Assembly: GCA_028534125.1 (NCBI GenBank)
Contig: CM052816.1
Location: 78,308,001-78,372,000, forward strand
From: Lama glama
Taxonomy: Eukaryota
Length of the DNA: 64,000 nt
Reading direction: 5' to 3'
Shown here: positions 17,262-51,010 of the stretch, in pieces
How positions within the stretch are numbered: position 1 is the stretch's first letter
Layout: every line of letters begins with the position of its first letter
Notes under the pieces: generated by a model
Databases searched by the model: none
What the model was told of the DNA's origin: nothing
Seen by the model: the letters and a program-made list of their open reading frames with translations, nothing else
Made by a program: the position numbers and the translations under genes

Positions 17262-17549
17262 GTAATAATTCTTTCTACTTTTTAAACAAATCAAAAACAT
17301 TTTGAAAAATTCTTTAGTATAGCGTTGTTAATCCTCTTTATGTCTCTGAGCTCTCCTCCTAGAAACCCACTTTACTTTTAGATGTTTATGTTCACATTTA
17401 GAAGTGTTCTGTTAACATTGATCGCCACATCACCCAAATCTGGGTGACAGTTGTGTTTCCTCGGGGCCACCTGATCCACAGTTGGCGATCAGTGTGCTAA
17501 TTTTAACACCTTGTTTAAAAGTGTAGAGTCAGTCTTTGTATGCCTTCCG

Positions 17550-29985: not shown

Positions 29986-31978
29986 TGGTTTTACTTAGTG
30001 TTTACAATATGTTTTATTACCATTATTAAAGGAAGACTAGGATGGAGGTCTAGATCAGTTCGTGAGCAGTTAAACTAATCTCTCCCATGCAGTGATGAGG
30101 ACCTGGACAGTGTTGTGGGAAAAGGGAAGAAAAAAAAGACATTCTGCATAGGCAGGTGATGGTACTCACCAACTAAGTGGATGGAAGGGGAGGAGGAGGA
30201 GAGAATGAATGACTGTTTACCTAATTGTATAGTCAAGACTTAGTGCATCTGTTTCCTGCGGGAAAGATGGAAAAAAGGGGAAATGCTGTGGACCAGGCTG
30301 TGAAATGTTACCCATCAGAGAGCGAGGGGAGCCTCCCCAGGGAGGGAAATGGGGGAGGGACTCTGGTGAAGAACAGTGTGTCTAGAAAGGTGAAGGGATT
30401 GTCAAGAAAAAGTGAGTGGCTAACAGTTTCACATGCCGCCAGAAAGTCAAGAATAAAGACAGTTTTTTTAAGGACTTTGAGAACTTTCAGTGTAATTTCA
30501 AGAGAAGAAGGCAGGCTGGGGACGAAGACAGGCTCAAGAAGCTGTAACTATAGACAACTTCAGAATGCCGACAGTAACAGGGAGTAGGAAAATGGGTAAA
30601 GGAAATGAAGTCAAAGATCATTTCAGGATGGGAATAAATACAAACTCTAGTGTTTAAAGACAGAAGAAAAAAAAGTAGCAGGAAAAGAAACTAAGGAAGG
30701 GATTCAGGATTGTAGTGGTCTCTTAAACTAGGGGGCAAGAGGGGAAAAAGGAGAAATGTCAGCAAGTGGCATAACACATATAAAGATGGATGAATAGAAA
30801 TGTTTTTCATGTTTAATTGTGAATTTAAAATTTCAGTGTTTAATTGTAACTTTAAAAAGAAACTAAATTAGTATTTTATAAAAAGTGCTGAATTTAGATG
30901 CCCTAATGGGTGTTCTCTTCTCCAAGACTGGTGTCTTGGAAAGATGTGTAGTCATTCTCTTACTTCTAGTGCTCACAAATAGCTTAGATCTCCTCTTTTG
31001 TAGTTCTTAATAGTGGCGAGTAATTTATTCACTGAGGATGAATTTAATTTTTAGTAATGGCCATATGTTATTCAGACATCTCTGATAAATGAAGTAGATT
31101 ATCAGGCTGAGTGTTACTGTTTGGAATTTTTTTAAAAAGGAGTTGTGCTTATCAAGGACTGAAACTATTGTGTTTAGTAAATTGTGAAGGCAGTCCCAAA
31201 GGAGGCATTCCAAAATTGATTTGAAGGTGAAGTAAGGATAGACTTTTCCTATGTAACTACATTTAAAGGTATTTACTTGAATAAAATACTTCTCTGCCTT
31301 TTGATAAAAGGAATCAGTTTCATTTCTTAGTAGTCACATCTTTTATAACTGATTAATCTATATTTACACTGTTATCAAAAAACTCACAAATGGCCGGACT
31401 CTGAGAACAAAGATAATGTAAAATTCTTCATTTGAGGATTAATAAACAAAACAATATGTGATTAAGAAAGCAAAATTATTTATTATTAAAAACATGTGGA
31501 TGTCTAAGTCTTAGGGGCAGGGTGGATTTATCTTGTTATAAGAAAGTCTTAACACGGAAATGTTTTTGAGAAGATATGCCAGAACATTTTTCCCTGTATT
31601 AACTTAATTGTCTTTGTTAAACATATGAAAATTGAATAGATTAAATTTGCTTTAAAGACATGTATTTTGCTTTAAAGACATGTACTTAATATTGGACAAG
31701 GTTTAAAAATTATTCTTTGGGTCATATTCTTCCAAGTAAAGGCTCTTGGATTTAAATTAAATATTCTCCCAAATGTATTACTTTTAGGTCGTTAGAAGTT
31801 TTTCTGTTTGCTTTTTGTTTAGTAAATTATACTCCAGTATGCTAAACTATGTCCAAAAGCAAAGAAAGATTGTACCTCCTATTAGAGTACTCTGAATAGA
31901 AAAGTTCAGGTTAATAATAAAGTAGAAAAAAATAACTGACCTGAAGTTTTTATTAATAGTAATGTTTCTTTTTTTAAG

Positions 31979-50336: not shown

Positions 50337-50776
50337 GCTTTTAATCCCTTGACGCCGGGAGTTGGGATTTCCCAGCACACTTCCATTGCCGGCAATGAGA
50401 CGCACCGTGACCGCCAGCGCCAAGGGGTTAACATATACTTGTAAAACCATGTAACTCTTAATTTGTACCCGTGTCTTTACTCTTATTGATATATAAAATT
50501 ATATATACATATGAACCATAAAGCTACATAAAACTTAGCAACAATAAAAAAGGATAACACACATTAATACAATTCAAAGAAAAATTAATAACCTTTTATG
50601 CTGGATAAATCTCATTTCTGTTTTTTTCTTTTTTATTGTCTTTTATGTTAAACTTTCTACAAAAGGATGTATAAATGGTTAAGTAGAGAATATCTACAAA
50701 ATATTGTCTCTCATAAGTATTACATTACTTGGTGTACATTTAATAGACTGACATGTATAAGCACATAAAAATCATT

Positions 50777-50821
50777 TTACGTAATACGCTGCGAAATACG
50801 TTGACTCCTCCTCCGCCTCAC
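50777..50821 (-). CDS. NIPBL: NIPBL isoform B read-through C-terminus (VRRRRSQRISQRIT*)
   Basis: Frame continues past the exon 46 donor to TAA; matches the known isoform B end. Confidence 0.9.
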   Translation of the reverse strand: MRRRRSQRISQRIT

Positions 50822-51010
50822 CCCTGAAGTGCCTCCTCCTCTATCCTCCCCATCACTTTCATCATCTTCTGTCTCTGCTGCTGCATTATTTTTAGGGCTG
50901 CCTCCTCCAAGCAGCGAGGTAATTGCTTTGTTCCGAGCATTTGTGCTGGCTGACACTTCCCCTTCTTCCTCCTCTTCATCAGGGTCCAGATGTTCCATGA
51001 GAAGTTTGAA
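50822..51010 (-). CDS. NIPBL: NIPBL exon 46 (FKLLMEHLDPDEEEEE...GGTSG)
   Basis: 189 nt, donor GGG|gtgagg. Confidence 0.96.

Follow-up and report, generated by a model that had tools for sequence, protein, structure and literature searches.

How do cells choose between the two C-termini of NIPBL, and does an RNA structure in the last intron of the gene take part in that choice? Isoform A is 2804 aa long and isoform B 2697 aa, and the two are common to residue 2683 (PMC5372497). In human, isoform B extends exon 46 by 211 bp of intron 46 (PMC4100155, Table 2), and the acceptor of exon 47 is rated weak, with a score of 0.41 (PMC4100155). Both isoforms show the same tissue patterns, from which the authors infer a coordinated regulatory mechanism (PMC5372497). 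We found no description in the literature searched of how cells set the A:B ratio.

The window analyzed here is the whole 64-kb stretch of DNA, which includes 500 N and carries NIPBL on its minus strand. The exon before the last intron ends at 50822 and is followed by an intron of 558 nt (50264..50821, minus strand). The first 45 nt of this intron (50777-50821) hold the 14 read-through codons of isoform B and their stop, which lies at 50777-50779. The coding part of exon 47 (49898..50263, minus strand) supplies the C-terminus of isoform A as 121 codons plus a stop. This layout, with exon 47 on one side and intron read-through on the other, matches the published difference between the two isoforms.

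A Y-shaped hairpin in the last NIPBL intron

Within the intron lies a 91-nt element (50341..50431, minus strand) that is predicted to form a Y-shaped hairpin in the NIPBL sense RNA. A preliminary description of this DNA had reported an 83-bp element flanked by TTAA, with 14-bp imperfect inverted termini, and the sequence agrees in all details. The TTAA copies occupy 50341-50344 and 50428-50431, and the termini 50345-50358 and 50414-50427; a repeat finder recovered them as arms of 18 nt that are 83% complementary and 55 nt apart. The fold starts with a GC-rich terminal stem of 13 bp, continues through three further pairs and then divides into two arms. The 5' strand of the terminal stem corresponds to RNA positions 6-18 (50414..50426, minus strand) and the 3' strand to positions 74-86 (50346..50358, minus strand). 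As had been claimed, all 13 positions pair in the sense fold, two of them as G-U, and the same two are A-C mismatches on the plus strand.

The long inner arm (RNA positions 26-58; 50374..50406, minus strand) is rich in G-U pairs and is tipped by a perfect palindrome of 14 nt (50384-50397). The short inner arm (RNA positions 59-68; 50364..50373, minus strand) is a mini-stem of 3 bp closed by a 4-nt loop. Palindrome and mini-stem had both been noted before, the latter in a region that we located at 50363-50374, and both are present. An extension of the stem through UUAA/UUAA, also proposed earlier, appears in the centroid structure, with pair probabilities of 0.3-0.7 in context. The element does contain the 7 CpGs attributed to it in otherwise CpG-poor DNA, with a ratio of observed to expected CpG of 0.91, compared to 0.22 window-wide. 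Additionally, part of its interior (50365-50379) shows 80% complementarity over 15 nt, with seven consecutive pairs, to a stretch of exon 47 (50214-50228), which is probably at chance level.

Stability of the fold

The sense RNA of the element has a minimum free energy of −38.8 kcal/mol (z −2.97), and none of 200 shuffled sequences was equally stable. When we scanned both strands of the 64-kb window in 91-nt windows at 10-nt steps, the sense element ranked first by energy among 12,664 windows. After regression on GC content, it was 8th of the 6,332 windows on its own strand. The terminal stem is also insensitive to its surroundings, with pair probabilities of 0.98-1.00 in contexts of 291 nt and 623 nt; the inner arms reached 0.5-0.9 in context, and the mini-stem 0.76-0.82. 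A separate stretch of the window, the AT-rich 30861-30951 on the plus strand, forms three hairpins and has the strongest z-score that we saw, −6.67.

The terminal stem on its own is unremarkable, because stems of 13 bp occur at four loci per strand in the 64 kb when up to two G-U pairs and loops of up to 60 nt are allowed. The NIPBL element is the only GC-rich one among those loci (10 of 13 arm bases). The abundance of such stems is compatible with a purely linear explanation, in which the last ~190 nt of the intron are a regulatory block of binding sites for splicing or 3'-end factors and the hairpin is a by-product of GC-rich sites. The weakness of the exon 47 acceptor in human (PMC4100155) would also suit such a block. 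Against it stands the rank of the element as the most stable of the 12,664 windows, and we consider this explanation unlikely.

The hairpin was first proposed to be strand-specific. The sense strand does have the advantage of its G-U pairs, but the antisense RNA, at −34.7 kcal/mol (z −2.71), likewise outperformed all 200 of its shuffles, so the strand preference is real but modest. The non-random antisense fold leaves room for a role at the DNA level, with the element acting as an intragenic enhancer or a cluster of factor-binding sites conserved as double-stranded DNA. The mini-stem resembles what we take to be an NF-κB-type site, and the palindrome presumably two spaced half-sites. The high CpG ratio in CpG-poor surroundings fits a DNA-level role as well, as does the listing of NIPBL among genes rich in ultraconserved elements (PMC13513235). 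Nevertheless, the two mismatches between the arms have been kept as G-U pairs rather than repaired to a perfect DNA palindrome, and the element, which borders on poly(A) hexamers, is no more than 190 nt away from a regulated acceptor. Given these features, we judge a DNA-level element to be quite improbable.

Conservation of the hairpin and its flanks

The sequence of the element occurs, wholly or in part, mostly in human sequencing runs, which implies that human DNA contains identical 31-letter words. A second view of its conservation came from a stop-free frame at 50208-50498, which has its start codon at 50450, runs through the whole element and is read in a phase other than that of exon 47. 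Gene callers have predicted this 81-codon frame on public contigs, and by word-index, exhaustive and cluster look-up we collected 24 distinct translations across the element (P0001-P0024), one of them identical to the window. One variant was present on 347 contigs and another on 63, each from three source collections; several are known from one contig each. Across the full 81 codons, 19 of the 21 aligned variants shared 92-100% identity with the window. Because five of the 24 variants shift frame within the block, the frame is not coding, and we ruled out a micro-protein.

Read in this way, the conserved block measures at least 243 nt (50208..50450, minus strand) and is made up of 19 nt of upstream flank, the element, the 77 nt that lead to the acceptor and 56 nt of exon 47. 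In the 5' arm, no codon showed an amino-acid-visible change in any of the 23 variants that cover it, and in the 3' arm, read in two frames, all 24 variants keep the amino acids. These comparisons see nucleotides through amino acids, so silent positions (about a third) are invisible to them, including one base of four of the seven CpGs. With the frame-shifted tails of P0004, P0005 and P0011 excluded beyond codon 37, the 21 aligned variants contained 4 distinct amino-acid changes in the 6 codons of the upstream flank, 8 in the 31 codons of the element, 11 plus one insertion in the 25 codons between element and acceptor, and 1 in the 18 codons of exon 47. The eight amino-acid-changing differences within the element are confined to RNA positions 25-70, which leaves the arms unaffected. 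The majority of natural changes in the element fall in the long inner arm.

The human-run words and the 24 public variants bear out the idea that conservation extends outside one lineage, and at the level of these sequences the element is conserved beyond close relatives rather than lineage-private. Since this conservation reaches into both flanks, it is not creditable to the fold alone, and a linear block of factor sites would account for the protection of flanks and hairpin together. Such a block accords less well with a pattern in which interior and flanks vary but no change is visible in the arms. Farther upstream the intron appears to be less well kept, as the human isoform-B primer (PMC5372497) aligns to 50679-50700 with several mismatches, which suggests lower conservation in the 5' half of the intron than in the 3' block.

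A match to the exon 47 peptide in a metagenome collection led to a distant, fish-like NIPBL locus (L002), whose last exon is 73% identical to that of the window. In this single organism, nothing similar to the intron or the element was found in the 880 nt before the acceptor, a stretch that ends short of the preceding exon, and a covariance model of the element had no match in the locus. L002 does contain a short tandem-repeated unit at its positions 740-775, ~110-140 nt upstream of the last-exon acceptor. Searching prokaryote-genome and viral collections with the exon 47 peptide gave no match.

Natural variation and the predicted fold

We inferred the base changes behind the variant translations by minimal edits, which reproduced the first 50 residues of five window-matching variants and the codons of the element in P0018, P0021 and P0022. 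Several of the changes preserve pairing. U58C, found in four variants including the one on 347 contigs, turns a G-U pair into G-C; A70G replaces U-A with U-G; and C30U replaces C-G with U-G. Three others, C25U, G43C and A69C, lie at positions that are unpaired in the predicted fold. G54A and G31C, known from single variants on one and two contigs, respectively, each disrupt a pair of the inner arm. As predicted breaks in the inner arm, these two changes would count against a role of the fold, as would the lack of the element in the 880 nt before the L002 acceptor.

The most divergent full-length variant, P0024, requires five changes within the 91 nt. Four are inside the fold, namely the deletion of one unpaired inner base, U58C, a change in a loop and A70G; the fifth alters the last base of the 3' TTAA. 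Reconstructed by minimal edits, which reproduce the first 50 of 80 residues and thus cover the element, P0024 adopts the same Y shape, with −45.5 kcal/mol in the sense orientation and −36.4 kcal/mol in antisense. Of 3,000 randomly drawn sets of changes, each with three transitions and one deletion, only 2.5-2.9% attained the energy of P0024. In this model, the changes in P0024 are consistent with selection on the sense fold. That they improve the fold speaks against linear sites alone, and that they favor the sense fold more than the antisense fold argues against conservation as double-stranded DNA.

No compensatory double change was present among the variants, and every pair-keeping change was one-sided. 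With invariant stem pairs and no two-sided change, the variants are uninformative on covariation, and the absence of compensation is also what a sequence-only block would predict. We infer that selection may have acted on the RNA fold rather than on the bare sequence, with the choice between isoforms A and B as its target.

Origin of the element

TTAA on both sides and imperfect inverted termini of 14 nt with C-rich tips led to the earlier proposal that the element is an ancient piggyBac-type MITE, that is, an old, non-autonomous transposon inserting at TTAA that was fixed, conserved and finally exapted. The piggyBac superfamily is characterized by TTAA duplication and by termini of 12-19 bp (PMC5381638), a range that includes the 14 nt seen here. 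Human piggyBac-like elements can also contain inner inverted or palindromic repeats (PMC12324416), and there is an inner palindrome in the NIPBL element too. The human elements MER75, MER85 and Looper share with it the TTAA flanks, the short C-rich inverted termini and the inner palindromic repeat, in a comparison of their described traits (PMC5381638; PMC12324416).

Closer comparison is less favorable to this origin. According to PMC5381638, the first six terminal bases of piggyBac elements follow C[C/A/T][C/A/T][T/G/A][T/A/G][T/G/A], with the first C conserved. The right end of the NIPBL element fits this motif at five of six positions and the left end at four of six; the left terminus begins with T instead of the conserved C. 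At 83 nt, the element is short for the family, and the 3' TTAA is altered in two of 24 variants. Moreover, TTAA is self-complementary and doubles as stem; as its own reverse complement, it makes target site duplications indistinguishable from an extension of the hairpin.

A MITE would be expected to have multiple copies with shared termini in the genome, and no second copy was found at the sensitivity of our searches. In a BLAST search of the 91 nt against its own 2.35-Gb genome, the element itself was the only match. A merged pattern of the 18-nt terminus, with up to two mismatches allowed, matched 209 times, compared to 154 for a backwards control, and the 100 of the 209 matches that were listed included no nearby inverted pair. 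The same kind of BLAST search performed well on a positive control from the same window, a hairpin of ~89 nt at 17412-17500 (plus strand). It is Y-shaped, with a 13-bp terminal stem, a free energy of −38.7 kcal/mol and a z-score of −4.34, and it proved to be a genuine miniature repeat, with 40 scored copies from 244 candidates and 84-93% identity among copies. This MITE and the NIPBL element are alike in length (~90 nt), stem (13 bp), Y shape and energy (−38.7 and −38.8 kcal/mol). Yet the MITE is multicopy, and no further copy of the NIPBL element was found. A covariance model of the NIPBL element, run on the window and L002, matched only the element itself and its mirror strand, and not the MITE.

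With the element as the only BLAST match and 40 copies found for the control, the NIPBL element is single-copy at that sensitivity, which very old, decayed sister copies would escape in both the BLAST and the pattern searches. Unlike MER75, MER85 and Looper, it is single-copy, shorter, only partly in agreement with the terminal motif and conserved across lineages. With no paralogue found in its own genome and a terminal motif that fits at four and five of six positions, the piggyBac-MITE origin is unsupported, and we think exaptation of such a transposon unlikely. A transposon origin concerns only where the element came from and is compatible with either functional reading, as RNA fold or as linear sequence.

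Comparison with known RNA classes

An intronic hairpin of this size could also be an independent small RNA, similar to a snoRNA, tRNA or microRNA, that is excised from the intron. The long terminal stem would suit such an RNA, and intronic snoRNAs favor positions ~77 nt upstream of the acceptor, which is the spacing seen here. The element nevertheless lacks the marks of each class. Box C/D snoRNAs carry a C box, RUGAUGA, and a D box, CUGA, beside a terminal stem; both motifs are absent from the 91 nt, and we rejected this class. We saw neither C/D nor H/ACA boxes in the 91 nt, and no snoRNA family matched the element. A canonical microRNA precursor has a single terminal loop on a stem that runs unbranched for roughly three helical turns, and we rejected it on the grounds that the stem here runs for 13 + 3 bp and then enters a three-way junction.

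The preliminary description had also directed attention to Rfam, where no family came near threshold. A search with 1,201 nt returned nine matches at E ≤ 10, all far below threshold, and the only one on the element, CRISPR-DR17, scored 19 bits against a gathering score of 42. ARAGORN found no tRNA genes in 50000-50800, and these sub-threshold scores and null result led us to reject an Rfam family and a tRNA. Taken together, the sub-threshold Rfam overlap, the ARAGORN result, the missing snoRNA boxes and the branched stem make an excised small RNA very improbable. Elsewhere in the window, 43641-43731 (minus strand) folds into the shape of a tRNA, including a hairpin that resembles a T arm, and continues into an A-rich tail; it looks like the head of a tRNA-derived SINE.

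Our literature search yielded no description of any element in the last NIPBL intron, and the supplements of two conserved-structure screens, searched as text, do not list NIPBL. What appears to be new here is a conserved intronic RNA structure beside an alternative last exon, for which we found no matching Rfam family or published description; prior annotation is possible.

A putative structure between poly(A) signals and the exon 47 acceptor

A proximal AAUAAA (50632..50637, minus strand) and the CA that comes after it at 50620-50619 agree with a transcript end ~203-211 nt into the intron, and by its position this hexamer would define the 3' end of isoform B. The element starts farther downstream, 391 nt into the intron of 558 nt. 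Its assignment to the last NIPBL intron was correct, but its placement in the isoform B 3' UTR probably was not. Because human isoform B takes 211 nt of intron 46 and the element starts at 391, the element probably lies outside the annotated isoform B 3' UTR and downstream of its poly(A) site, assuming that this site is shared with human.

At its other end, the element is joined to two further hexamers. An AUUAAA (50340..50345, minus strand) is built on its 3' TTAA, and an AAUAAA (50331..50336, minus strand) begins 4 nt after it. The position of this AAUAAA and the distance of 77 nt from the element to the exon 47 acceptor (at 50264) are both as first described. The codons of the AAUAAA are kept in 24 of 24 variants, and the AUUAAA is lost in three (P0006, P0023 and P0024). 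A U/GU-rich tract follows within ~30 nt of the distal hexamers and, judging by its location, likely overlaps the branch-point and polypyrimidine region of the exon 47 acceptor.

Two of the variants, P0004 and P0023, diverge fully from the others at ~50300-50330 (minus strand), within ~20 nt downstream of the AAUAAA, which is roughly the expected cleavage position. These divergences could be lineage-specific insertions, chimeric contigs or transcript ends.

We propose that the element is a cis-acting structure in the NIPBL pre-mRNA that takes part in deciding whether the transcript is spliced to exon 47 or polyadenylated within the intron, a model that we regard as plausible, if somewhat short of an even chance. 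In the intron, the transcript would either be spliced to the weak exon 47 acceptor or be cleaved at an internal poly(A) site, of which there may be one or two. Standing between the isoform B poly(A) site and the distal hexamer pair, the hairpin could bias the outcome toward A or B, possibly including a longer form of B. It might do so by putting a duplex in place of the usual single-stranded region upstream of the distal poly(A) site, with 91 nt compacted, or by masking or presenting the adjoining hexamers, as the AUUAAA would be partly paired. Alternatively, the hairpin may serve as a platform for protein binding.

One precedent is the polyadenylation-inhibition element of the U1A pre-mRNA, a folded RNA near a poly(A) signal. 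Like that element, the NIPBL hairpin is a conserved folded RNA that directly precedes a poly(A) hexamer, and the transcripts of both are subject to 3'-end regulation. Unlike it, the hairpin displays no U1A-type loop heptamer, the nearest look-alike being paired in the palindrome stem, and it is intronic and close to a 3' splice site, not part of a terminal 3' UTR. The locus also resembles the highly conserved intronic flanks of regulated alternative exons and the ultraconserved elements of chromatin and RNA-processing genes, in that near-invariant non-coding sequence adjoins a weak, alternatively used acceptor. It differs from typical conserved flanks in that no local RNA fold in the 64 kb is more stable than its core, which retains 7 CpGs. 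We know of no such fold in typical conserved intronic flanks.

Implications for NIPBL

In its most specific form, our proposal is that a conserved RNA switch between two intronic poly(A) sites and the exon 47 acceptor sets the A:B ratio and dates back to early mammals, where it may have arisen from a captured element that inserts at TTAA. This version is speculative, and we consider it doubtful. The choice would decide whether the protein receives the tail of isoform A, which carries a putative DNA-binding function. If the fold were irrelevant, the finding would shrink to an ordinary conserved intron flank. NIPBL dosage is critical, and a near-invariant hairpin at the decision point offers a concrete target of 91 nt for minigene assays, editing and the study of patient variants. 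[quoted passage not shown]
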